Assembly (NCBI GenBank): GCA_964035545.1
Contig: OZ037768.1
Coordinates: forward strand, 14,455,675-14,519,674
Direction of reading: 5' to 3'
Length of the DNA stretch: 64,000 nt
Source: Bugula neritina
Lineage: Eukaryota; Animalia; Bryozoa
Shown: positions 1-64,000 of the stretch, piece by piece
Numbering within the stretch: the stretch's first letter is position 1
Layout of the letters: each line of letters begins with the position of its first letter
The notes under the pieces: model-generated
What the model was told of the DNA's origin: nothing
Database searches by the model: none
The model's input: the letters and a program-made list of their open reading frames with translations, nothing else
Position numbers and translations under genes: made by a program

Positions 1-36695
<36,695 letters not shown>

Positions 36696-37387
36696 GATCT
36701 GCAGTTACGCAAAATTTGGCAAAGTATTAACACTACATCTGGTGGTTGCAGCTACTACTAGAACTGCAGTATAACTTTACACCTTCAAGTTACGGAATAG
36801 TCAATAACTTTTAATAAACTTTATAAAGCCGTGAAATTAAATCTACAATCGGCATTAAAGCATGCTTATTAACAATAGCTTCATGCATTCTGAATTGTAG
36901 TTAAGGCATTTGGCTAAAAGAAGAAGTATTTGCTTTACACAAATCGCCTTTTATTTGTTATTCAATGCCTTTCGCTAACGGGGTTAGTCAAGGTACTCAA
37001 GAACAATGCACAGAGGCAGTACAGCTTTATTTTACGCAAAGCTTGAAGTCGAAAATGCTGCAATAAAACTGGTAATACCCTAGTAACTTGCTTTTTTACA
37101 TTTTAAGTGAATATGAATTTCGCGATTGTCATCTAACAATGCAAAAAAATTGGTGTTATTAATGGCATTTTCCAGTATTAGCTAGTTTTCAACACAATTA
37201 CTTCCAACAGCTCAACTACATAATCAAATTATGATTATTAATGATAATTAATACGGTACCCAATAGTATATTATGTAATAAATATTACCTACGGATTTGG
37301 GAAGCAGAAAAGAAATTAAACTGCTGCCTAAGCAAATTGAAAACACTTTTAGAAACTTGCACAATGAGCCACCTGATTATTGCATGG

Positions 37388-42972: not shown

Positions 42973-43315
42973 TGTTGTGAGTTTTAGCACAATTATCAAG
43001 CGTGGATTGCCTGCGTATTTAGTTTCAATTTAACTAGCAACTACTAACAGAGCTTGCGTACGATAACCTTTATTTAATTCGATAAACATAATTATAACAG
43101 TATGTCAAAACCACAATACATCAATCAATTATAACACGTCTTACTACTACGAGCCCCTGCTCTCAACACACATGGTTTCTGCTAGCTAACCCGCGAACAG
43201 TCACTTGACCGGAACCTTGTCTTCCGGTCCTTCTGATTGGATAGTAAAACATAGTTATAAGTATTCCCAAACAGGAGGAGACAAATGCATTATTATGCTA
43301 CGTAATCCCATTACA
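42973..43315 (-). repeat. Element B 3' LTR
   Basis: TGTAATGG...CAACA on the minus strand, preceded by PPT GGTGGGGGCGG (43316-43326). Confidence 0.95.
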
Positions 43316-43592
43316 CCGCCCCCACCAGCAGAAAGCCATACTTTCTGATAAAAACAGAAATAGTATAATAATGCAAAAATAACATAAGTAAAGAAAACCC
43401 ACAAAGAGAAAGAAAAGAAATATCAAATGTATGACATATATAAACACATAGTAAGATAACGGATGGCCGGCGTACAACTGGCCAGCTATAAAGAGAGAGT
43501 CCTGGATCGTAGGTCATTAGCAGTCGAGCATTTACATGATCACAATGTAGTACCCCGGGAACATGCGGGGTGGAATTGTCAACTGTCAGCTC

Positions 43593-44264
43593 CTATTTTT
43601 GTAGGGACTGGATCCGGTGTCGTGCCTGCCGTGCACGTAGTCTACGCTTAAGGCGTCCCACTGAGCCCTTTAGTTCATTAAGGCTCACTGAAGTGCTGAG
43701 TAAATCGGGTGCCAACTGGGTGAATTCATCCTGCAGCCGTAGGAGTCTTTCTTCGACGGTTGCTAGTCGGGTAGGCCTGGTTGAGGTTGGCGTCGCCTCT
43801 TCCGGGGAGTCTGATGCTTCCATGGGGGTATTGTCTAGCCGCGGTATGATTGCAGCGACCGTTTTCACCATAGGGGACTTCTGACGGGCGGCTGTTAGCA
43901 ATGTATAAAATCCGGAGGATAACGCGGCCCAGGTTAAAGCTTTCTTAACCATTGGTTTGACCGCTTCTATGTATTGGTTGTAGTTGTCCGCGTCTACTAT
44001 ATAGCCCTCGCCCGCAAAACAGTCCATCATATGAGCCACGACAGGGTATGGGTACACGTCGTGAAATCCACACGGACAGAACCGTAGCAGGAAGTGTGCA
44101 TTCACATGCAGCCGCAGTCCTTGGTGTGAGGGAAGCTCTTCGTAACACACGTGGCAGGTGTGTTGTGACCTACTCGGTCCCCAGGCTTCTTCAATCTGCC
44201 GCTCCGTTAGTCGCGACACCCATCTGTGTCTTCGACGCAGCACCGCGGGCAGTCCGTTGTCCAT
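43593..44264 (-). CDS. Element B accessory ORF3: C2H2 plus C2HC-like zinc finger and C-terminal coiled coil (223 aa from first ATG; frame open to 44492)
   Basis: CHVC-x12-HVNAH, then CPC-x11-H-x3-C; heptad-like LATVEERLLRLQDEF...LNELKGSVGRLKRRL; lies between pol and the PPT. Confidence 0.8.
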   Translation of the reverse strand: MDNGLPAVLRRRHRWVSRLTERQIEEAWGPSRSQHTCHVCYEELPSHQGLRLHVNAHFLLRFCPCGFHDVYPYPVVAHMMDCFAGEGYIVDADNYNQYIEAVKPMVKKALTWAALSSGFYTLLTAARQKSPMVKTVAAIIPRLDNTPMEASDSPEEATPTSTRPTRLATVEERLLRLQDEFTQLAPDLLSTSVSLNELKGSVGRLKRRLRARQARHRIQSLQK

Positions 44265-44641
44265 TTCCGGTCCGTTATCCAAGGAGGAGAGAGAGTGTAG
44301 ATCCTGTGACCCAGAGTTGGTCGATCGAGTGTGATCTGCAAGAGTATAACAGTGTAAGAGGGTACACTGAGTGCAACCGGCGTATACAGCCTGGTGGGTA
44401 CTTAACTCAATTAGACACTCGTGAGACTCAGTTAATGAATAGTTGATCGAAGACACACACTGCTGTAACAGACTGTTAAGTCTTAGAGTCAATGTGAATT
44501 CTCACCACTAAAAATCATTACCGAGTCTCCAGCTTACTCTATTATAGCTAAGCTGATTAATACAGTTTAGCCCTCATACCAAAAACATAACTAACTCACC
44601 CCTCGATTCTTGGCAAGCCATTGTGAATGAGAGTGGTATGT

Positions 44642-47014
44642 TTATGAATTCTGCGTACGTCTACTCAAAGCTGTATTAACATGGTGAAAGAGCGAGCAGC
44701 GTGATTGTGAAACGTGACTATGACTTATTACCTCCGGCGTATGAATCTTATTTGAATTTCCGCCGAGGCAAAAGTTGATATTTTCGTGGTGCTCACAACT
44801 CCCACGCTCTGCTCTCTTCCCCTCACGGCGTCTCGTAGGACGTTTGACCGCGCCCTGAACGGAACGTGGTAAGTCCTTGCGATACGCGGGGCCTGGCTTA
44901 GGACACCGTTTCTGAGGTGTCGTCACTAACCAAGGCGGTTTACGCACCCGTGGACGGTCACGTCTCTTGGGTGGTGCTTCCAGCCAGTTTGTGACAAATG
45001 GAGCTTTCCTAGCATCTCCGTTCGGAGCCTGGGGAAGTGTTGTCTCCAGCCATGGTGGTTTACGCACCCGTAGACGGTCACGTCTCACAGGTGGTGCTTC
45101 CAGCCAATTTGTGAGAAATGGAGCTTTCCCAGTACCTCCGCACGGAGCCCCTCCCTTGGGGGGTTTTTGCACTTCCAGGTCGGTTCCTGACCTAGGAAGT
45201 GGCGATGGCGGCTTGCACGCTAACGGCGGTGAGCGCACTTCCCTGAACGGGTGTGGCTTTTCCTGCCTCGCCACTGCTTTGGGTTGCATCCTAGGCGGTT
45301 TGTCGACCAGGTTAGCAGTCTCCGTCTGCCCGGGTCTTTCTGCACTTTGCCTTCGCCGCCCTACCTCGTCAGTAGGGGGGCCGTGCTTACTGACCCGGCA
45401 GACTCCGCACTGCCCAACTCTGTATTGTACATCACGCTCCATGTGAGGCCAATACCACCAGAGTTGTAGTTCGGTGAACACCTGTTGGGCTCCCCCGTGA
45501 GCCTGTTGGTGTACCTCTTCTATCAACTCTTGGCGGATGGCGGCAGGACAGAGGGTCCTCTCCTGGTCTGGCTGGTGGTGGTTATCGGCCAAAGATATAG
45601 TCAGTAGACCATCCGGCTCGATCCGCAGTGCGTTCCAACGTCGGCAGTACAGCTGCCACTCAGGGCAGCCCTGCTTCCGTTGTTTGTCACTGGGTCGTCG
45701 CCCTTCCCGTTTCATTCGATAGACGTCGGCTACCACCCCCGGAATAATTTCCTGGAGGTGTCCTAGCTCCTTGACGCCATCGATTGAGACAGGTTTGGCG
45801 TGGGAGTCCTGTGCCACTTCTGGGGGCATGTCAGGGTCCCCAAGGTGAGGTGTAGCCTCGGTTTTGTGTAGTGACGTGGCCGTCTCTGGGCGCTGTTCGT
45901 CATCCACGCAACCGTCTGATGTTCTCCCACGGGTCTCCTGGCTGTGGGGTGAGGCAGTCCTTCGCCCGAAGGGCGGCTTCTCTAGAGGACTTTTCATCGC
46001 GGTTTCCCGCGATGGCCTGCTGTTATCTTCTTGAACAGAAGGAGTACAGCTTGGTGGAGAGGTGGGTGGTAGGCTCACTGGTTCTGAGGGGGAGTGGAGG
46101 CATGGCACCGAGGTCTTTCCTTTCCGTGTCAGCTGGTTAGAGCTGCGGACAGGTGGGACTTTTGGGTGCGCGCTCTCTACAGCTCCCGGCTTGGAGGTAC
46201 GGCCACCGTCTACCTTGCGGTGGACGGTGCCCCGGGAGTGGCAAGGCATAGTACAGGTACGTACTACCGGCTCTTCTCCCGTTAGGGGATGGCCAAACTT
46301 ATCGACACAGGCGAGCTCCCTGCCGCCCATAATCATCGCAGATTTACCAAAATCAATGCGACATCCGTGTCGTTGTAAGAATGGCATCCCAAGGATGGCG
46401 TCCTCCTGGAGTTGTCCTACTATGAATCCCTCCTGGATAGTCTGGTTACAGACGCTCCCAGGGAGTTCAATGATACCGTAGAAGGGGATGCACGACCTGT
46501 CTGCCAAGGTGCCATGATCGCCTTCATACGGTTCCAACCTGTTTCGGATCTGAGCACTGAGTGTGTCAAAGAATCGACGACCCAGGAGGTTGGTGGTACA
46601 GCCCGTGTCCAACAGATATCTGGCAGGTTTGCCGGCTATCTGTCCTGGTAGAAACAGGCTGCTCTCGTGGGGATGTAGTGGTATCTTGGGTGACCTCATC
46701 TCCCTCACCTTGGCGGAGGGGTTAGGTTCTTGACGACGACTCGGGACCAGCTGCCGAGGGGCTGGCGCCGCGCCTTGCGGCGTTTGGGCACCTTTCCTCG
46801 CAGACTCTGCGGTCCGTCGTTTGTCAAACCTGTTGCGGGGTGGCATTGAGAACACCGGCGGCGAGCGGCTTGTACAGCCTGCTTGCCGTCCTGGTGGCCG
46901 TTCCGCGAGGTCCCGGACGGGTGTCCGGCGTGGCGGACGCCACTGTGTCCTCCCTTGGGGTTTTAACGGCGGCCCGCCGGATGTGGGAGCATCCGCGGGC
47001 CGTCGTAGTTTAAC
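44642..47014 (-). CDS. Element B truncated Pol: aspartic protease, integrase H2C2 finger and Pro/Arg-rich tail; no RT, RNase H or DDE core
   Basis: Open frame; LLDTGCT and ILGMPFL; HQQAH...CGVC; no YxDD, RNase H or DDE motifs, all of which are present in related element D. Confidence 0.85.
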   Translation of the reverse strand, partial: VKLRRPADAPTSGGPPLKPQGRTQWRPPRRTPVRDLAERPPGRQAGCTSRSPPVFSMPPRNRFDKRRTAESARKGAQTPQGAAPAPRQLVPSRRQEPNPSAKVREMRSPKIPLHPHESSLFLPGQIAGKPARYLLDTGCTTNLLGRRFFDTLSAQIRNRLEPYEGDHGTLADRSCIPFYGIIELPGSVCNQTIQEGFIVGQLQEDAILGMPFLQRHGCRIDFGKSAMIMGGRELACVDKFGHPLTGEEPVVRTCTMPCHSRGTVHRKVDGGRTSKPGAVESAHPKVPPVRSSNQLTRKGKTSVPCLHSPSEPVSLPPTSPPSCTPSVQEDNSRPSRETAMKSPLEKPPFGRRTASPHSQETRGRTSDGCVDDEQRPETATSLHKTEATPHLGDPDMPPEVAQDSHAKPVSIDGVKELGHLQEIIPGVVADVYRMKREGRRPSDKQRKQGCPEWQLYCRRWNALRIEPDGLLTISLADNHHQPDQERTLCPAAIRQELIEEVHQQAHGGAQQVFTELQLWWYWPHMERDVQYRVGQCGVCRVSKHGPPTDEVGRRRQSAERPGQTETANLVDKPPRMQPKAVARQEKPHPFREVRSPPLACKPPSPLPRSGTDLEVQKPPKGGAPCGGTGKAPFLTNWLEAPPVRRDRLRVRKPPWLETTLPQAPNGDARKAPFVTNWLEAPPKRRDRPRVRKPPWLVTTPQKRCPKPGPAYRKDLPRSVQGAVKRPTRRREGKRAERGSCEHHENINFCLGGNSNKIHTPEVISHSHVSQSRCSLFHHVNTALSRRTQNS
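46950..47014 (-). promoter_or_regulatory. Putative -1 ribosomal frameshift signal
   Basis: G TTA AAC heptamer in the gag frame, 6-nt spacer, hairpin GGCCCGC-GGATG-ctccca-CATCC-g-GCGGGCC; the pol frame is -1. Confidence 0.75.
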
Positions 47015-47892
47015 CCTGGTTGAAGTCGGGGACAGTGTTTCTGGAAGTGTCCTGGTCTTCCGCACCCCCAGCAGGAGGGGTGTCCTCTACCAGGCGACTG
47101 CACCGGTGGCCCGTCAAGCTCACTGGTGATGCCTAGCTGGCTTTCCAAGGCGGAGACCAGTTCGGCTAACATGTCGGTCATTTGTGCGACCTGTGATGCC
47201 ACCGTCATCTGCGTCACCTTGGCTACCGCTGGAGTTTCCGCGTGAGAAGCGGTAGGAGCAGCGGAGGGCTCCATGTCCACCTGACGAGAAGTCACACGGC
47301 TCCGGTGCAGCTGGCTGGCCAGGAGGTAAACCTCCCCTTCTGCCAGCGCACCTTCAACCGTGGTGACTCCCCTCGCCAAGAGTTGGTGATGGAGTCCCAA
47401 GTCGTTGATGGACTGCACGAAGGCATCATAGGTATACCTCTCACGGTTTACTTGCGGCAGATCGCAGAACGCAATCTGCGCCAGTCTCATAACCGTGGTA
47501 GCAGGCTCTTGTAGCGGCGTGTGAGGATCACGCCGTAGTCTCTGAAGACGGGCCCGCGCATCCACAGCGGAGATACCAAAACGGGCCCACAGGGAAGCAA
47601 AGATGCCATCAATGTCTGGTCCCACTCCGTATGGCTTGGCTTTGTCTGACAGCGCCATCCTGAGCTTGAGCAATGCTATTCTAGGTGGCCATTGTGCAAC
47701 TTCCATTACATTTTGGAATTCCTGAACAAATTGCTCCACCGGCTCTTCACCTGAGAAGGTGGGTACCCTCAGCCGGTACTTCTCTTCGTAACATTCCCTA
47801 TGTACTCGCACTTCTGGTTCTATAGGTATAGCAATGTTATCTTCCTCACCTTCATTCCTCCGAAGGGGTAGCTCTGTGCCTCTTTCTGTCAT
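46963..47892 (-). CDS. gag: Element B Gag, 309 aa, with CCHC knuckle
   Basis: Intact ORF; CWGCGRPGHFQKHC; ATG just after the PBS. Confidence 0.92.
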   Translation of the reverse strand: MTERGTELPLRRNEGEEDNIAIPIEPEVRVHRECYEEKYRLRVPTFSGEEPVEQFVQEFQNVMEVAQWPPRIALLKLRMALSDKAKPYGVGPDIDGIFASLWARFGISAVDARARLQRLRRDPHTPLQEPATTVMRLAQIAFCDLPQVNRERYTYDAFVQSINDLGLHHQLLARGVTTVEGALAEGEVYLLASQLHRSRVTSRQVDMEPSAAPTASHAETPAVAKVTQMTVASQVAQMTDMLAELVSALESQLGITSELDGPPVQSPGRGHPSCWGCGRPGHFQKHCPRLQPGLNYDGPRMLPHPAGRR

Positions 47893-47906
47893 CTTGAAAT
47901 ACGCAA

Positions 47907-47925
47907 AATCCCACTGCTGCCACCA
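47907..47925 (-). promoter_or_regulatory. Primer binding site, tRNA-Leu
   Basis: TGGTGGCAGCAGTGGGATT, complementary to the 3' end of tRNA-Leu(AAG/TAG), 1 nt from the LTR. Confidence 0.85.
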
Positions 47926-47926
47926 C

Positions 47927-48269
47927 TGTTGTGAGTTTTAGCACAATTATCAAGCGTGGATTGCCTGCGTATTTAGTTTCAATTTAACTAGCAACTACTA
48001 ACAGAGCTTGCGTACGATAACCTTTATTTAATTCGATAAACATAATTATAACAGTATGTCAAAACCACAATACATCAATCAATTATAACACGTCTTACTA
48101 CTACGAGCCCCTGCTCTCAACACACATGGTTTCTGCTAGCTAACCCGCGAACAGTCACTTGACCGGAACCTTGTCTTCCGGTCCTTCTGATTGGATAGTA
48201 AAACATAGTTATAAGTATTCCCAAACAGGAGGAGACAAATGCATTATTATGCTACGTAATCCCATTACA
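47927..48269 (-). repeat. Element B 5' LTR
   Basis: Identical to 42973-43315. Confidence 0.95.
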
Positions 48270-48468
48270 ATACGCTACTTTGATTAACTATTGTTGTGTT
48301 GTACTAGTAATTGTGTTGTGTAAAATATAAATATTATTCACTTGAGAGACCAATTTATTATTTACAAGCTATTTTGGCGCAATGGCTAAAAGTTTTAAAT
48401 ACTCGGATATAATAAAAAACTATGAAGATCAAAACGTGAGTTGAGAGTTCTTTGTGTAGATTGAGAAA

Positions 48469-51400
48469 TTGGAGCTCGTGGCAGAGCTACAGGGAGGGTC
48501 AGCGGATATATTGAAGTTACTACCTCTGTTCCTAGCAGAGCTTGCTTTCGCAGTTTATCAGCAGTTGAGCGCAGAGGTGAAGGCAGATTATGAAAAACTC
48601 AAAAGTGAGCTGAGCACAGCTTTTAGTATTGATGCCTTCTCATTATATGAGCAGTTGAAAGGCAGAACCCTGATGGAAGGTAAGTCTGTGGATGTTTATC
48701 TAGCAGATTTAAAGAGGTTGGTTTGTTTGATCAGACAGAAAACTGCAGATTCTCTGCTGAAGTGCGCTCTTGTGTCTGGGCTACCAGCTGATGTAGATAT
48801 GAGTCTAAAATCGTCAGTAAATGTCAGTAGACTAAAATTGCCTAAAATTGTGAGCAAAGCGAGTGCCATGCTCGCAATTAAAAATGAGAGGTCAAGTGTC
48901 ATTTGTGCTGGTATAAGGCAAGATGTAAGAACAACAGGGACAAAGTGCTTTGCTTGCTCAGGTCTGGGTCACATTTTTCATGATTGTGCCAATAACAAGA
49001 GGGATAGACAGCCTGGTGCTCGTAACCAGTAAATACGCAAATGCTTCGTGTGCTAGTTGCCGGAGCATTTAGCCCACCAATGCCCTGAACGTTTAGAAAA
49101 AGTCAACGAGAGAGCATCTGCGTCGGATACTCACCCCGCATCACAACATTAGAGACGCCCTTTCCTATGACGAATCTTTTAATAAATGGTGTAACATTCA
49201 AATCATTGGTTGATACTGGGTGCCAGCAACTGTAGTCAGCTAAAATGTTGTTCACTTGTTGAGAGAAAATCATAGTTTTGTGCCAAAAATTGTGACAATG
49301 TTGGATGGTAAAATAACTATGTGTCTAGGGGAGGTTAGTCTAAAAATCACAGCAGGAACAAGATGTGTAAATGTTCGATGCCTGATATCAAAATCCTTGA
49401 TTTGTGGGTGTGCAACCATAATTGGAATAAATGCAGTGAAGGGGCTCGGAGGATTAACAGTGAGCTCTCAAGGTGTGCCTTTCTCTTGACGGTGCTCGCC
49501 AATATGATAAGTTAGCAGTTGTGGCGTTCGGAGACTCTAATAAACCATGCAGTTTGCAAGTCGAGGATGCAGACTTTGTAGCGTCATTCAATGAAAGTGA
49601 CTTGGAAATAGAAAGGTGGTGAGCCAGTGTTGAAAAATCAATGTTGTCAATCTGAGATTCTTGAAAAATGCAGGAAAAGTTATGTGCAAGAGATTTGAAC
49701 TTGGATTGAAAATGGGTGGTTAGAAGAGCACAATGAAGCTGACCATGGCAAGGTTCAGGGAGTCATTCCTATGATGGCAGCGTTCCAACCCAACAAAGAA
49801 AGGAAAGTATCGCCTTTGATAGACAACAGCCGTGAACTAAACCAGTACATAAGCTGTAACCCTGAGGCAGATGTGGCAGTGTGCCAGGAAAAGTTGCATA
49901 AGTGGCGTAGGCTTGGTCCCAGTTGCTGCATGCTTGATTTGAAGAAGGCTTAATTACAGCTGTCCGTGGATGCCGAGCTGCTCAAATTTTCAGGCAGTTC
50001 GCTATAAGGGCAAGCTCTTTGTCACGATAAGAATGGGATTTCGACTCAATGTGGCTCGCAAGATTATGTCAAAGGTACTAGGCAGAGTACTTTTAATGGA
50101 TAACTCTATTCAAAAGGGGACTGATAATCACATTGATGACATTATTGTTGATGAAAAAGTGGTTTCAGTAATTAGTAGTAAGAGTTAAGGAGCACCTCAC
50201 TGGTTATGGATTAATTTCAAAAGACCCTGAAAGTATTGATAATGCCAGAGTTCTTGGCCTTCGAGTGAAGAAAGGTCCCTCCGAACAGTTGCGTTGGAAA
50301 AGAGACAATGACATGAATGTTGGTGAAGTTGTGACTAAACAGGATTTGTTTTCTTTGTGTGAGAAATTGGTGGGCCATTAACCTGTTGGGGGTTGCTTGA
50401 GAGTGGCGTGCAGCTTTATGAAGAGAAGCACCAATGATTGTGGTTGGAATGAGTCAATCACAAAAAGCACAGTGGAAATGCTTGGTGAGACAATGCAGAG
50501 GCTTCAGGAAAAAGACCCAGTGAGTGGACAATGGCATGTGTCTGTATCAAACTTTGGAACAGTGTGATGTGATGCCAGCAACCCGTCAGTTGAGATAGAT
50601 GGAGAGCAGGTGGAGGATGGGAGTTGTTACAGATTCAGTTACAGTGTATGCTTGGGTTCAGTCAATCATAAGTAATAGTAAGCGACCCAAAGTAAATGGT
50701 CTTGGCGAGATGCCTATCCGAAGAAGGTTGGCCATGGTTGCAGAATCGATAGAGCTGTATGAGCTTGAAGTAAGAGTTAGGTTAGCGAAGTCGGAAGAGA
50801 ATCTGGCTGACTTGTTGAGATGTGTTCCAAAGAGCTAGTTGCAGACTCAAGTATGCTCTGTTGAGTGCGCAAGTAACTACTTTATCCCCCCAATAAGAGA
50901 TTTACATGACACAAACCACTTGGGTTCTGAAAAGACGTTACACTTGGCAAAATATAAGTGGGGTGATGCTGCCGTGAAAGAGGATATAGCTAAAGTCGTA
51001 AGGAAGTGCCATGTTTGTCGTCAAGTTGATCCTGCACCAGTAAAATGAGAGAGTGGCAAACTGTCAGTTGAAACAACATGGATCAGGCTTGTATTGGACA
51101 TCACCCACTGCAATGGAGTTCCTTTTCTGACAGTTATTGATTGTGGGCTAAGCAGGTTCTCAATATGGAGGCAATTGAGGAATGAAACATCTGAGTTGGT
51201 TGCAAAACAACTGGAGGAATCGTTCCATGAAAGAGGCCCTCCCAAAGAACTGCTGACTGATAATGAGTCGAGCTATCGTGGTGAGAAGATGAAAAAGTTG
51301 ATGGCTCGGTGGAAAGTTGAGCACATGTTTTGCAGTGCATATAAGCCGCAAGGAAATGGTATAGCGAAACGTTATCACAGAACAGTAAAGCGTATGATGG

Positions 51401-51960
51401 CTAGGTCTAGTAGAAGTGCACAGGAAATGCTGTATTGGTACAATTTCTCTCCAAGAATAGCAGGTCACACACCAGCAGAGCAGGTGCACAAGCATAACAT
51501 TCATTCCCTCCTAGATGTGAGTGATAATTCCTGCCGGCCATGAGATATATCCTTAAACCCATATCAACCAGGTGATGTGGTGTATGTCAAGCCTCCAGGT
51601 GCCAGATGCAAAACACCCTGGAAGAAGGGTACAGTCACAGCATTGGTTTCTAATACCACTGTAAAAGTTGATGGCACCAACTGGCATGTCAGCGTTATTA
51701 GACTCTGTCATGCAGGTCCAGTCAGCTATACCAATAGTGACAAAGGAGTGATGATAGAAGACGATGAATCAGTAGTTGAGGACAGTGATAAGGAGAGTGA
51801 TGTGAATAGTAATGAAGATGATATGCAAAATGTGGCTGATGAGCCTCCTATGGCTGGTGGCAGTGTCGCAGATGAAGGGGTGGCAGCTGACCATGAAAAT
51901 ACAAGCTATCTCAATAGAGACAGAAAAAACCCTGCTGGGCATAAGGATTATGTATTTTTT
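48469..51960 (+). pseudogene. Element C gag-pol remnants
   Basis: gag with CCHC knuckle CFACSGLGHIFHDC, protease VDTG, RT LDLKKA and HIDDIIV, RNase H CDAS, integrase H..H..CHVC, DITH and TDNE; many stops and frameshifts. Confidence 0.9.
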
Positions 51961-52102
51961 CATAGTTTATTAGTGATTTTGATATCAAGGGGAGGTGTGT
52001 GTGTGTGTGTGTTTTATTTCATCATAATATAGTGTTTTACAACTAGCATATGTTACAAGAGCAGATAAACAACTAGAAAAGAAACATAGGAAAACATAAC
52101 AG

Positions 52103-54996: not shown

Positions 54997-57900
54997 TGTA
55001 GTGAATTTCGCAATTCCTATATTATGTGTGGTTCAACTTAAACAAAGCCACTACACCAGGTTATTTACGTTATGATAAGTTTATTATTTACAAGATACAA
55101 GAGGTTCTAATTGCTGCTAACATGAATTGAAACGATTACATAATAAGTGAGCATTTACACACAACTACTCTAAATGAAGTCCCAAGCTGCTCTGCCTGGC
55201 TAGCTACTCAGCGCGCTTCCACTACAAGTAGCTAGCTCTACCTGCTATCAATTAATATGCCTGTCCTAATTGGTTGTTACTAGTGGTGCCACTGTCGACC
55301 ATAGATACAAGTCGCTGGAGGTCGATGTAGTCAATCTCCACAATAGCATACAATATAGAGTCGACCCTTTCGATATAATAACTAACACTAATTGCACCAC
55401 TAAAATCCATTACACTCTCCACACCTATCGAAAGGTACACTCTATGACTAATGTTTGAAAATACATTATAAAATAAAAGATTGAAAAATAGACAGGAATA
55501 AAAGAACACAAAATAACATGATCAAAACGATTCACATAACATTAACAAGACGATCGATTAAGGATCCGCCGCAGGGTCGAAGTGTCTCTCACCCGATCAT
55601 GTAAGACAGCATGAGCATAGTAAGGGAAGGATGTACTGTATCACATTCACATAGTCCGAACCAAGCAATGGGTGGTGTCGAGAAACCACCAGGCATCATG
55701 GCTACAAGTGAAAAGGAATCTCCCCAAAGGGGGGGGAGAAAGGAAGGGAGTACGAAGGGATCTCCCCAAAGGGGGAGAAAGAAGGGGGGGTTGACTGGTC
55801 TCTTTCTAGAGGGTCGTGTCGAATACCAACATCCACACTGATCACCGTCGAATTCCCAAAGGGGGGAATTTAAGGCTTCTTCATCTTGACTTTTATAGTT
55901 AATTATTACTTCATGCAGGATTTTTTAATATTACTTGTTACTTCTTATTATTATTACGATGTCGCTATGGCGAAAAGAGAGAGGAGCTACTCTGCCTGAT
56001 TGCATTCTTCCTTGCAGTATTATTACGTCGGTACGTCGTCGCCAGGATGAGAAGAGGAAAGAACTCCTCTGTTAGTTGCCTCTCTGTACTTTGCCGTTGT
56101 GGGGCACCATCCGCCATGACAGTCACCAGAGTTGCTATTATGGCGCTACAAGAATCAAATCAAGCAGTCAGCATCGTGTCGACAAATAATGTGATGAATG
56201 ATGGGTGACTGCGCGACGGTGGTGCCAGGAGAAAGAATTATGCTCCGCCATTAAAGTCTCACCTGCAACAGAATGCCAGAAACTGTTGAAGGGGTTTTCA
56301 CCTGGTCAGTACGACACCTCGACTGAGTCTCGCAATCTACTAACCACTGATTATTACTAAATCATGCGGTCGACTGCCTCACTCAAGTCGTCAGTGAAAT
56401 CACCTGACTTGGGAAACCAACTTTATCGTTATGATAAAGCGAGACTGATTTAACGCTACCAGCTTGAATTCTACTTAAATAATAGAATTATACTAGTAGA
56501 CTTACCATAAGACAGCCGTGACGTTAGTCTGCTGCCCACTTAGGCCACGTAGTACGCCAGCCTGCCAAGTACATGCGTGCACATTGGCAGTTAAAATAGA
56601 AAAGAACGCTCTTTGCAGTGAAAGTGATTACATAATACCCCTTTCACTAGCGAGCTGGCTTCGCTCTTTTCTTTACCCCTGGTAGTGTTATATTTACACC
56701 ACTGGGTAGGCAACTCACAGTTGCGTCTCCTTATATTTCGGAAACGCAACTCTCAATTGCTCGTCGCCCCAGATTTTTTTTATTATAGCTGATGGATGTT
56801 TTTCCACTGCGTCACACAAGAAATCTTTTAAATAAGATGGAGGCGCCCTAGTGCGTTGCCTACACTCCAACTGCACTGGGGAATTTGCTACAACTGGTGA
56901 CTTTTCCACCACGGGTGGTGTCGCCAGTACGGGGGGGGGGGTCCACCAGTACGGGTGGTCCTCCCCCAGCTGCCTCTTCCTCATGATTTTGAGGAATTTC
57001 CATCTCATCCGGGGCGATGGGCCTGTCGACCGGCTCCACAGGTGGTGGAGTCGGCTCCGACGGGTCTTCTGGTGTGTCGGCCTCCTCCTCCTGGGGTGGA
57101 GGAGGCTGGGGCGGGTCGGGTGGCGCGTCGGCCGCCCCGTCCTGATCTTGCAGTGTCTCCTCAACCTCTCTATACGCCATGCCTCGCCCCCTCATAGGAG
57201 GGCGTCTAGCGGGCTCTAAGAGGGGAGGTGCTTGACCTGCTGCATCAGGACTCGCCCAGTGAGGTTTCAGCCGTACTTCGTTCTGGACTGACACTTGTCC
57301 AGACCGTTCCACTTTATAGGTGTGATTTGGCATCACCTCAATCACGCAGTAGGGACCTACGAACTTCGGCTGCAACTTGGCTGCCTGTCCGCGCCGCCGG
57401 CAATGACTGGTCATTCAGACCCTGTCTCCCACCTTGTATAAGGGAGGGGGGTCGTCAGAGTCACCACTTCTGACCTGCCAGTGCTGCTCACGTAGCACCT
57501 CGTGAGCTGTCCCCATGCATTTCACGAGCTTGTCCACATAATCGTGGACGTTGCTCTCGGGAGCCGGAACATGATAGGTTACGTGCTCAGGAACCCTGGT
57601 TTCTCTCCCCAGCATGAGAAAATTAGGGGTCTCCAGTGTACTCGAGTGAGGGGTACTACGGTACGCTCGCATGATCTGCGGCAGCACCAAGTCCCACTCT
57701 TCCTGGCTCCTACCAATAAGCAGGCTTTTCAGTGAGTCCCCTAGCATTCGGTTGTTCCGCTCCACAACCCTGTTCCCTTGCGGGTGATACGGGGTCGTCC
57801 GACTCTGGTTTACCCCCCACATTTTACAGAGATTGCTCATAAGTTGCGACAGAAACTGGGCGCCTTGATCAGAATGTATCTGCTCCGGCAAGCCGAAATA

Positions 57901-60900: not shown

Positions 60901-61428
60901 TATGCCGTCCTCCATAGCTACTGGTTCTTGGCGAAGTATATCTTCTTTGTCGGCCATCTTTTACACCCTGGCTAGGAGCATTTACCATAAATAAATCCCA
61001 CAGCTGCCACCACTGTTGTGAATTTATGCTTCACTGCAATCGATGGGTTTATTCAATGAAGGCCACTTCGCCCGGTTTACTAATTAATATGAGTTTATTT
61101 ATTACTGATAACACACGCATAAAATGAATAACACTACCAACACAGACTGTTACATAATAGAGAGCTAACTGTACACAACTTTACACTAGCATTATCAAGT
61201 CCTCTCTGCCGGCTATGTTGCCTAACTAGCTTCCACTACCTGTTTGTAGCTCCGCCTACTAAATTAATTGCTAGTCCTGTTTTATTGGCCAATACGATCA
61301 GGCCATCCTGATGGCATGATGCTGGCTGCATCATGTAACTGCCTGAGTGAGAAGTAAAATTTCGATATAACTAATGCAGTACTAAAAATTTTTACAATAT
61401 AATTAATACATTATTAAAAATCCTTACA
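54997..61428 (-). mobile_element. Element D: degenerate Ty3/Gypsy element with divergent LTRs (54997-55414, 61014-61428)
   Basis: tRNA-Leu PBS 60994-61012, gag start 60957, RT (LDLLSGYWQ, YLDD), RNase H, integrase (VDLVGP, HSDQG, VERNN), PPT GGTGTGGAGAG; no matching TSD. Confidence 0.9.
56715..60957 (-). pseudogene. Element D gag-pol, frameshifted, with gag-to-protease deletion near 60545
   Basis: ORFs 60505, 60249, 59408, 59117, 58729, 57415, 56860. Confidence 0.9.
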
Positions 61429-61547: not shown

Positions 61548-62630
61548 TGTAACTTCTGCCCCATTTTATTTTTGATAGGTTGCACTGCTGGATTTATGCT
61601 GATGTTTATTGAAACCAACTGATAACCAACGTGAAACTACAATAATACAATAATACGATTTGATAATAAAGACATTATTGAAAGAAAAATGAAACATACA
61701 AAAATTACAAAATTGTTGCAAAACAATGTTTGACATACCTCTATTACCCTTCCTGGGGAGAGTTAGAATTAAATGTATAAAGTTGTGATTGTGAAAGTTT
61801 AATCAAAAATCAAAAATGACTAGTGAGAACTACAACAGTCAGTGGAGAAAGCATCAGACTGGCATAAAGGTATGAAACACCTCAGCTACTATAATTTCTG
61901 GCTACAAGCTATACAAAGCTGACAGCTATTCTGGTAGCAAAAATCATTGCATTGTAATTGTGAAAACAAAGCTACTTGTGGTTTAAAAAACTGTGGCTAA
62001 GTGAGTAGCAAAGTGAGTAGCAAAGTGAGTAGCAAAGTGAGTAGCTAAGTGAGTAGCTAAGTGAGTAGCTAAGTGAGTAGCTAAGTGAGTAGCTAAGTGA
62101 GTAGCTAAGTGAGTAGCTAAGTGAGTAGCTAAGTGAGTAGCTAAGTGAGTAGCTAAGTGAGTAGCTAAGTGAGTAGCTAAGTGAGTAGCTAAGTGAGTAG
62201 CTAAGTGAGTAGCTAAGTGAGTAGCTAAGTGAGTAGCTAAGTGAGTAGCTAAGTGAGTATAAGGGTGAATGGTGATGAATTGTCCTGTGCCACTGTTGTG
62301 TTTTACACAATACTAATGCGTGGTTCCTAGCTTGTAATTATGACTTGGTTATCTGCAGCAATATAGGAATTGTGATAAGATTAGAAGAGATTTATTTATA
62401 ATTACATACTAATAAAATGATATAAGAAAGCACACGGATTAAAGTATTACATCTTCCTAATTGCTAGTACGCTCTCTCTACTGACGATTCTCTCGTTACG
62501 CATCGCTGGGGGTTGTCACCTGATGCATCTCCAATTGGCTAGGGGACACGGGGACGCGCGTATTGCGTGCTCCACTACACCACTGTATGTAGTAGTGTGT
62601 AATATAATAAAAAACGACCAAAACGCTATA
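61548..62630 (-). mobile_element. Probable solo LTR (~1.08 kb) containing a 12-bp tandem array
   Basis: 5-bp TSD CCCAT, ends TGTAAC...GCTATA; removal restores LINE frame KPWINGDLLFMIQKK. Confidence 0.75.
61996..62259. repeat. 12-bp minisatellite GAGTAGCTAAGT
   Basis: About 22 tandem units. Confidence 0.95.
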
Positions 62631-63541
62631 CCCATTTATCCAAGGCTTTGAAATGCTTTTTTTAGCAAGCTTTGCTTTATGCTCTATTTTACAACTGTTT
62701 GTAAGTTCAGTAAGTTTTTGAACGAATTTATCATAAAACACATTAACATCACTACAGCAAAAAGCTTCCCAATTTGTAGTTATTAACACGTTATGTAATT
62801 TTTTGTAATTGATGATGCTATACTGTTTTTGAGACACAGAAATCAGGTCTGATCTTTTAAATTTATGTATGAAAGTATAGGCAGACAAGTAATCACTCAA
62901 ATCAGAAAAAACTGTTCCAGAAGTTATCGCATCGTTGTTTAGATTTAAAAGGATATGATTCAGGCATGTCCACTTATTAATAGGCTTAAAGTGATGAGTG
63001 CGCACAGTAATGGAGTTGCTGAAACAGTAGGTAGACAGGAGACTAAGATACTCAACATTAGAATGGTCTAGGATATCAATGTTGATATCACCAGCAATAA
63101 TGTGGTTACTTGCGTGTGAAGCGGATATGAATTTTTCGAAATCGTTCAAAAATTCAGTAACATCTGCACTGGGTTGTCGGTAAATAACTGTTAGAACCAC
63201 AGGTGGAGAAGAGCCATCACATTCTAACCTAATAGAATGAACATCACACCCAGATATGGTCACCACTGAGACCAGGACCATGCCAATGCCATTTCTCACA
63301 TACACCCCAACACCACCTCCACGCGAATCGCGTTGTGCACCTGAAAAAGTGAAGTTAGGAATTGCAAAAAATTCTATTTCATCATTTTTTAGCCAAGTTT
63401 CTGTTGCACAAATTACATCAAATGGGACATTACAAGAATATAACAATTGCTCAAAAAGGTAGAACTTGTTTCTTAAACTTTGACAGTTAATATTTAGTAT
63501 AGAAAATGTGTCAGGAGAAAAATCACTGTTTATTATTAAGT
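62631..63541 (-). pseudogene. LINE ORF2 apurinic-type endonuclease domain
   Basis: NINCQSL, ATETWL, GGGVGVYV, VIYRQP, AGDINID, LSDY, KPWIN motifs. Confidence 0.92.
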
Positions 63542-63544
63542 AGG

Positions 63545-63761
63545 TGTGGGCTGTAACTTGAATGATCATGCACGCAGGTCATGCTCATCAGAATGACACT
63601 ACAACTTGATTGATTAATTTTTGTGCATCAAACCTTTGTGATAAAAACGATGTTAGACAGACTGATACGCTACTTTGATTCATCATTGTTGTGTTGTACT
63701 AGTAAGTGTGTTGTGTAAAATATAAATATTAGTCACTTGCGAGACCAATTTATTATTTGCA
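63545..63761 (+). repeat. Element C 3' LTR
   Basis: TGTGGG...TTGCA, about 92% identical to the reassembled 5' LTR. Confidence 0.88.
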
Positions 63762-64000
63762 AATAGTATTATTATTATTGCCTAGTGACTAGTATTTTCC
63801 CTTCCCCTTATTCAACCTACAATACTCATGCACTTGGTTGGGTTTTATGTTGCTAATTCATGTAAACCGACAGTCGACTGAAGTTTGGTTCACTGGCTTG
63901 CTGACAATCCGAGTGTCGGTCTTTGAAATTATGAATATCGGCACACTTTGCCGAACTTCAGCCAACTGTCGGTTGAAGGTTCTAGAACCCCTTTGTCCAA

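Follow-up and report, generated by a model that had tools for sequence, protein, structure and literature searches.

In the Gypsy/Ty3 element Cer1 of C. elegans, the env position is occupied by CERV, a protein made from a spliced message with a start common to Gag (PMC10309623). CERV is needed for the export of Cer1 genomic RNA and not for transcription, and the accessible text of that study reports no CERV homologues outside nematodes (PMC10309623). According to the same text, the majority of non-Env ORFs at the env position are without a known function, and any element with internal splice sites has to find a way of exporting its unspliced RNA (PMC10309623). LTR elements of bdelloid rotifers carry non-Env ORF3s of GDSL esterase, DEDDy exonuclease, coiled-coil and TM types, which are typically expressed from spliced messages, and a non-autonomous bdelloid family, TelKA2n, retains its ORF3 (PMC5408684). 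The bryozoan env-carrying elements described in PMC13524379 have a gB-type Env and the gene order GAG-ENV-POL.

Here we describe a zinc-finger/coiled-coil ORF3 in a young Gypsy retrotransposon found in a 64-kb stretch of DNA, referred to below as the window. Rev, Rex and Rec, the retroviral export factors, are small products of spliced RNA that carry an arginine-rich motif, oligomerise and are paired with structured intronic RNA. An RNA regulator of the CERV/Rev type appears, by analogy, to be the closest precedent for ORF3, and it was absent from the options considered in the first-pass annotation of this DNA. The three roles named there, LTR transactivator, anti-silencing factor and targeting adaptor, gained no direct support from our analysis. 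ORF3 has in common with CERV the env position and, most likely, splicing and an N-terminus shared with Gag, as far as the accessible text on CERV allows the comparison. CERV is a protein of 517 aa encoded in five exons; one of its domains forms a ring and contains a C4 loop, and another is GTPase-like (PMC10309623). The ORF3 product, compared by description, would instead have 261 aa from two exons and combine two fingers, one C2H2 and one C2HC, with a coil at its C-terminus. Like Rev, Rex and Rec, the ORF3 protein would be a small product of spliced RNA with an arginine-rich motif, predicted oligomerisation and predicted structure in the intron RNA, a likeness that involves no demonstrated homology; unlike Rev, it has no exposed leucine-rich export signal that we could find. 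Rev is not known to have zinc fingers.

The bdelloid ORF3s resemble ORF3 as family-specific captured genes that occupy the env position in LTR elements of invertebrates, but no zinc-finger type is described among them and the word 'zinc' is absent from the main text (PMC5408684). Errantivirus Env, of F type or gB type, is likewise a third Gypsy gene (PMC13524379), whereas ORF3 has no signal peptide, fusion peptide or anchor. A zinc-finger/coiled-coil ORF3 is not mentioned in the accessible text of PMC13524379, PMC12440569 or PMC8556966, and no description was found in the literature searched; subscription journals, supplements, Repbase and Dfam lay outside that search and may have one. A search for literature on bryozoan gypsy LTR retrotransposons returned nothing. 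Non-Env ORF3s are already known as a kind, from CERV and the bdelloid types.

The element that carries this gene, element B, spans positions 42973 to 48269 of the window on the minus strand and comprises, in the direction of transcription:

47927–48269, minus strand: 5' LTR, 343 bp, TG...CA, with no difference from the 3' LTR
47908–47925, minus strand: primer-binding site, TGGTGGCAGC..., the same motif occurring at 61012 in element C
46963–47892, minus strand: gag open frame, with a weak CCHC knuckle match
44642–47086, minus strand: pol remnant, a single 814-codon open frame with protease, linker and integrase zinc-binding domain
43316–43330, minus strand: polypurine tract (PPT)
42973–43315, minus strand: 3' LTR, 343 bp

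With its paired TG...CA LTRs, primer-binding site (PBS), PPT and target-site duplication (ATAC), element B has the structure of a Ty3/Gypsy LTR retrotransposon. Its host site is another repeat, of which an empty copy lies at 63543–63762. We take the PBS to be tRNA-Leu-like; no tRNA genes were found within the window. A strict pattern found no slippery heptamer around the end of gag. The domain order in pol is PR followed by the IN zinc domain only: the protease has a DTG motif and matches the Pfam aspartyl-protease profile at E 0.001, short of the curated cut-off, and no Pfam match for RT, RNase H or the integrase core was obtained in the 814-aa frame. Judged from these frames, element B is non-autonomous, RT, RNase H and integrase core being missing. 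The earlier statement that the element had lost its enzymes is accordingly right for these three, but the protease and the integrase zinc-binding domain were kept.

The pol remnant is still open over 814 codons despite these losses, and its listed variants look neutral; it is rich in P, S, T and R and has much predicted RNA structure, and may perhaps be retained as RNA and not as protein. Close to its end lies a 116-nt tandem duplication (44914–45029 and 45034–45149, 84% identity). Element B is multicopy in four sequencing runs (X1–X4) of one organism. Sequencing pieces cover the pol remnant with few differences, and a single 794-nt piece connects most of ORF3 with the region adjoining the PPT.

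The window holds several other repeats. Element C (~55–61 kb) is a decayed relative with RT, RH and IN in Gypsy order and 46–49% identity to element B (tblastn). At 55300–56714 (minus strand), it has a strongly structured post-pol region of 453 nt (folding z -6.1) that ends at the acceptor-like CTGTTGCAG, beyond which there are broken frames with no relation to ORF3 by HMM; element C may have been laid out in the same way as element B, its third gene being another one that has decayed. A decayed Gypsy-like element of the same clade lies at 25294–28766 (plus strand), with a gag fragment at 25294–25959 (minus strand) and pol fragments on the plus strand, and neither an LTR pair nor an ORF3 was found in it. 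Adjoining element B, at 48460–52032 (plus strand), is a decayed LTR-type element with gag-like and integrase-core frames. An Exo_endo_phos endonuclease frame of a LINE-like element (62496–63578, minus strand) adjoins the empty-site copy of the host repeat of element B. A long inverted repeat at 14583–16671, with 636-nt arms that are 99% complementary, resembles a young foldback/MITE-type element. Tandem arrays, with units of 31, 18 and 12 nt, are found together with a long CA microsatellite at 20728–21837, 4238–5022, 61933–62316 and 31307–32429.

ORF3 lies after the stop of the pol remnant (44642) and before the PPT, in a frame at 43593–44501 (minus strand) that is open for 302 codons, 223 of them counted from the ATG at 44264. 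Frames of at least 247 codons appeared in none of 2000 shuffles of the 1326-nt segment from pol to the PPT, the maximum being 200. The sense frame of 223 aa that the first-pass annotation placed between pol and the PPT is therefore borne out as a real open frame, but the start assigned to it is probably wrong, the 223-aa gene being probably just exon 2 of a 261-aa product. Two plus-strand ORFs (43961–44446 and 43540–43884) were taken as antisense by-products. The parts of the putative splice form are:

47850–47892, minus strand: coding part of exon 1, the gag ATG plus 43 nt (14 codons plus 1 nt), common to Gag and the ORF3 product
47844–47852, minus strand: splice donor AAG/GTGAGG, cut between 47850 and 47849, top among the 22 GT sites of the 427 nt that follow the LTR
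44336–47849, minus strand: GT-AG intron of 3514 nt, carrying the remaining gag and the pol remnant
44333–44355, minus strand: splice acceptor TACTCTTGCAG/ATC, cut between 44336 and 44335, with a pyrimidine tract tied for best among 25 AG sites
43593–44335, minus strand: coding region of exon 2, 740 nt plus stop, including the 223-aa ORF from 44264

Joining 47850 to 44335 gives an in-frame product of 261 codons (14 codons plus 1 base, then 740 nt). Runs X3 and X4, both from one sample, each contain one contig that joins 44335 to 47850 and skips the 3514 nt, and the ends at this joint are CT..AC, which is GT..AG on the minus strand; the joint was absent from runs X1 and X2. Taken alone, these contigs are weak evidence, because the joint is one among 52, its short side has 39 letters and there is a microhomology of 2 letters. 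A natural protein, P0004, one among the 264 proteins screened, also has 261 aa, with 80% identity to ORF3: it begins with a leader of 14 residues, 10 of which equal the Gag start, and continues directly with DHT, at exactly the predicted junction. P0004 is encoded on a 5320-nt contig and is therefore probably an integrated reverse-transcribed copy of spliced RNA. At the acceptor position, 11 of 14 close homologues with long N-termini have the motif [LF][SL]D[YHRC]T, whose codons would spell an acceptor in those homologues as well. No longer fused forms of ORF3 were found among proteins of 1044–2980 aa, which is weak evidence. ORF3 is most likely made as a 261-residue protein, with the first 14 Gag codons spliced onto ORF3; the spliced origin expected of a CERV/Rev-type factor is seen indirectly, through the joined contigs and P0004. 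If both LTRs were kept, the intron-less copies represented by the X3/X4 joint and by P0004 would be mini-elements of ~1.8 kb consisting of LTR, PBS, ORF3, PPT and LTR.

A word-indexed search identified 144 close homologues, with 46–90% identity among the 120 matches listed. An exhaustive search yielded 73 representatives with identity down to ~26%, and a profile search gave 81 matches, mainly from a second large clade. In a tree of 93 domains, the 37 rows of the close family came together in a single, well-supported clade (100/98), with other groups next to it. Column conservation across 56 close sequences was highest for the coil (0.88), followed by the fingers (0.80–0.81), and fell to 0.48 for the linker; ORF3 is thus conserved as a protein. 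It is also, as had been claimed, intact in a non-autonomous copy. Seven zinc ligands were invariant in 93 sequences, most of which were pre-selected for intact ligands, and five were invariant in 38 unselected sequences. All eight ligands were kept in 116 of 157 complete domains, at least one being missing in the other 41, and both end motifs were present in 28 of the 120 listed close matches (of 144). The homologue set is a mixture of intact, decaying and truncated copies, and protein databases overstate intactness because they contain open frames only, broken frames being left out.

The named relatives, four clusters among 20 proteins looked up, are all bryozoan and all distant (XP_067940964 and XP_067944745 in Watersipora subatra, KAF6037488 and KAF6040923 in Bugula neritina). 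The domain is present twice in some annotated bryozoan proteins, among XP_067940964, KAF6040923 and KAF6037488. Two domain copies were seen in some bryozoan proteins of our set (P0128, P0189, P0176 and P0187/P0272); the two-domain proteins are possible host genes or domesticated copies. No homologue DNA was confirmed in viral contigs, metagenome contigs or prokaryote genomes, so that a place in Gypsy 3' regions is indicated for the close relatives only. Among 1054 variant rows, 40 were listed and 39 classified, a small selected sample in which 3 of 12 gag variants and 5 of 20 pol variants were synonymous, against a neutral expectation of 0.29; these gag and pol variants look neutral. Both ORF3 variants in the list were synonymous (2/2), a sample too small to weigh much.

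Two parts of the ORF3 product can be distinguished:

43890–44258, minus strand: double zinc-finger domain (C2H2 plus C-x-C/H/C finger, with flanking helices), about residues 3–125 of the 223-aa ORF
43596–43769, minus strand: predicted coiled coil with an arginine-rich tail, net +10 over the last 25 residues

Finger 1 is a classical C2H2 finger (C-x2-C-x12-H-x3-H), as the first-pass annotation had it, and the spacing of x11 given there for finger 2 has to be corrected to C-x-C-x12-H-x3-C. The C-terminal coiled coil with its basic tail was also predicted by our analysis: hydrophobic residues occupy 12 of 15 heptad a/d positions, and the C-terminal 58 residues are predicted as a single long helix. 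The fold of residues 1–135, predicted from 93 sequences, reached a mean pLDDT of 90.8 and a pTM of 0.84; with the 56 close sequences, the fingers had been modelled poorly (mean pLDDT 66), a weakness that the 93-sequence alignment removed. In this model, the ORF3 domain would be a finger pair wrapped in extra helices.

No family in Pfam, PHROGs or NCBIfam reached its cut-off for ORF3, and the libraries searched gave no match to an already described Gypsy ORF family, a match that the first-pass annotation had named as fatal to its proposal. Only finger 1 has the classical C2H2 ligand spacing and the query itself falls below the Pfam cut-off, while the generic zf-C2H2_4 profile was matched at E 0.1 or better by 17 of 38 aligned family members. 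Foldseek with residues 1–135 found nothing at E 0.001 or better in the PDB and BFVD, VIA-align found no structure match at Z 5 or more, and the ESM Atlas returned solely unnamed or generic C2H2 clusters; a missing Foldseek or VIA-align match does not amount to proof of a new fold. The tightest VIA-align matches were tandem C2H2 pairs covering residues 26–84 only (Kaiso, Z 3.8 and rmsd 3.2; SALL4, Z 3.6 and rmsd 2.7). Kaiso/ZBTB33, SALL4 and HIC2 share with ORF3 the spacing of finger 1 and the two-finger geometry of residues 26–84 (rmsd 2.7–3.2 Å), whereas ORF3 has a C-x-C...H-x3-C finger 2 and extra conserved N- and C-terminal helices in a predicted compact domain of 125 residues. The finger pair is probably of host origin.

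In typical DNA-reading fingers, the contact residues of the recognition code stand at -1, +3 and +6. At these positions, finger 2 of 37 close sequences carries Y/F (-1), P (+3, in 97%) and V/L/A (+6), and finger 1 of the close family has L at +6 in 100%. Finger 1 keeps R at +2 and +5 in ~80% of sequences. The close family does not show polar or basic residues at -1, +3 and +6 of both helices. The distant sequences (n=56) mostly have a DNA-type finger-2 helix, H/Q-R-D-Y-I/V-L-R. Finger 2 of the close family thus appears, from these alignments, to have lost DNA-type contact residues that distant relatives mostly keep. The double-finger domain has a net charge of 0. Beyond it, six or more K/R fall within 14 residues in 38 of the 44 close proteins and in 29 of the 50 distant ones; the ORF3 tail has the basic motif of a CERV/Rev-type factor. 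In a simple pattern scan for leucine-rich export signals, the conserved patterns all lay within the folded domain, so that no classic, exposed export signal of Rev type was evident.

The intron is predicted to be more structured than exon 2 and control DNA, with one stretch of particular note:

44336–44820, minus strand: predicted long hairpins, a candidate cis-acting RNA element directly upstream of the acceptor

Intron windows had a mean folding z of -1.97, with 10 of 23 at or below -2. In exon 2 the mean was 0.05 and in control DNA (34800–37300) it was 0.29, and no window went that low (0 of 6 and 0 of 16); the 3' UTR of element B gave -0.12. The segment from the pol stop to the acceptor (44336–44641) had a folding z of -2.65, and 44420–44820, a window picked post hoc after the scan, one of -5.5. 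Rfam had no match for the predicted hairpin region upstream of the acceptor. Good folding is likewise predicted for the intron's antisense strand (mean z -1.56, 5 of 23 windows), and pol RNA is structured in the related elements C and A too (mean z -1.0 and -1.1; 4 of 28 and 4 of 16 windows), with z -6.09 in the 453-nt post-pol region of element C. No ORF3 homologue was detectable in elements C and A within the window.

We tentatively propose that the ORF3 product is a CERV/Rev-like regulator of the element's own unspliced RNA, acting in export or stabilisation, which we regard as a plausible reading, if not quite a probable one. It is suggested by the start shared with Gag, the conserved arginine-rich tail, the finger-2 residues of non-DNA type and the structured intron RNA. 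As element B has strong internal splice sites, its unspliced RNA must still be exported. The spliced mRNA would leave the nucleus first and yield the regulator, which the basic tail would bring into the nucleus; there, the regulator would oligomerise through its coil and bind a structured element found in unspliced RNA only, and full-length RNA would then get to the cytoplasm, there to be translated into Gag and packaged. A copy without RT and integrase would take enzymes in trans but still depend on a matched regulator of its own, which would account for the retention of ORF3 in a non-autonomous copy. Several observations speak against the RNA regulator: no exposed export signal was found, its structural relatives are DNA-binding tandem C2H2 fingers, distant relatives mostly have the DNA-type finger-2 helix, elements C and A are structured although they have no detectable ORF3, the antisense strand of the intron folds too, and the contig joint is a single one of the 52 and is absent from X1 and X2.

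In a second reading, the same spliced protein would be a DNA-level regulator, a dimeric zinc-finger factor on LTR or internal DNA that activates transcription or blocks silencing, roles comparable to those of foamy-virus Tas and plant VANC. ORF3 aligns by profile with DNA-binding tandem C2H2 proteins (SALL3 at E 1e-5, HIC2 at E 4e-5) and by structure with tandem C2H2 proteins as well, finger 1 mostly carries R at +2/+5, the finger-2 helix of distant relatives is of DNA type, and a coiled coil with a terminal basic patch could grip DNA. This second reading is plausible but rather unlikely: in the close family, position +6 of finger 1 is L and the contact positions of finger 2 are taken by proline and hydrophobics, the domain carries no net charge, and the structural matches are weak and cover less than half of it.

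The hydrophobic and aromatic residues on the exposed finger-2 helix of the close family would suit a protein-binding surface. Acting on particles or host proteins and not on nucleic acid, the ORF3 product might then be an adaptor that associates with Gag, limit copy number or counteract a host defence protein. The coil being the most conserved part (0.88) and the N-terminus being common to Gag are in line with such a role, but the leader in common with Gag has only 14 residues and close and distant relatives alike retain the basic clusters, and we consider a protein-level role rather improbable, a little more so than one on DNA.

That ORF3 is a passenger, a captured host zinc-finger exon without a role for the element, and that the joined forms are chance deletions, seems very unlikely. 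A host origin is plausible from the occurrence of the same domain, sometimes twice, in annotated bryozoan proteins, and many matches are truncated, as the 28 of 120 with both end motifs illustrate. Against this stand the diversification of the family from 90% to ~26% identity with region-specific conservation, a junction that falls in frame on canonical sites in two separate records, and, in a small sample, synonymous variants in ORF3 beside neutral-looking ones in gag and pol. We are highly confident that ORF3 is a genuine accessory gene other than Env, both spliced and under selection. A degenerate envelope or fusion protein, which the env position, the env-style splicing, the coiled coil and one RLKR motif might bring to mind, can be dismissed as extremely improbable, since there is no hydrophobic segment (over 19 residues, hydropathy peaks at 0.88 in ORF3 and likewise in P0004, and a value of 1.6 is attained by just 3 of 56 aligned sequences), no N-glycosylation sequon and, for residues 1–135, no viral structure match at E 0.001 or better, and the Cys and His residues are spaced as zinc ligands. 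Env identity, examined through signal peptide, fusion peptide and anchor, none of which was found, was rejected, in agreement with the first-pass annotation; its statement that there is no furin-plus-fusion-peptide pattern holds in that no hydrophobic peptide follows, although a furin-like RLKR is present at residue 204.

A further-reaching form of the RNA-regulator reading, which we hold to be doubtful, is that ORF3 represents a second, independently evolved Rev-like export protein of Gypsy elements: a captured host zinc-finger pair that would have switched from DNA to RNA and spread over bryozoan Gypsy families with a structured intronic response element, would have been kept by non-autonomous copies after the loss of RT and integrase, and would also circulate as intron-less, ORF3-only mini-elements possibly supplying the regulator in trans. 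If ORF3 is instead a DNA-level activator or anti-silencer, this would be likewise unusual for an animal LTR retrotransposon. The zinc-finger domain that ORF3 defines is unclassified and counts more than 200 members in databases. The protein is small, folds well in prediction and occurs in multiple families, and since its splice form is defined and there is a candidate for the RNA element, repeated Rev-like invention by Gypsy elements would become testable with reporters.
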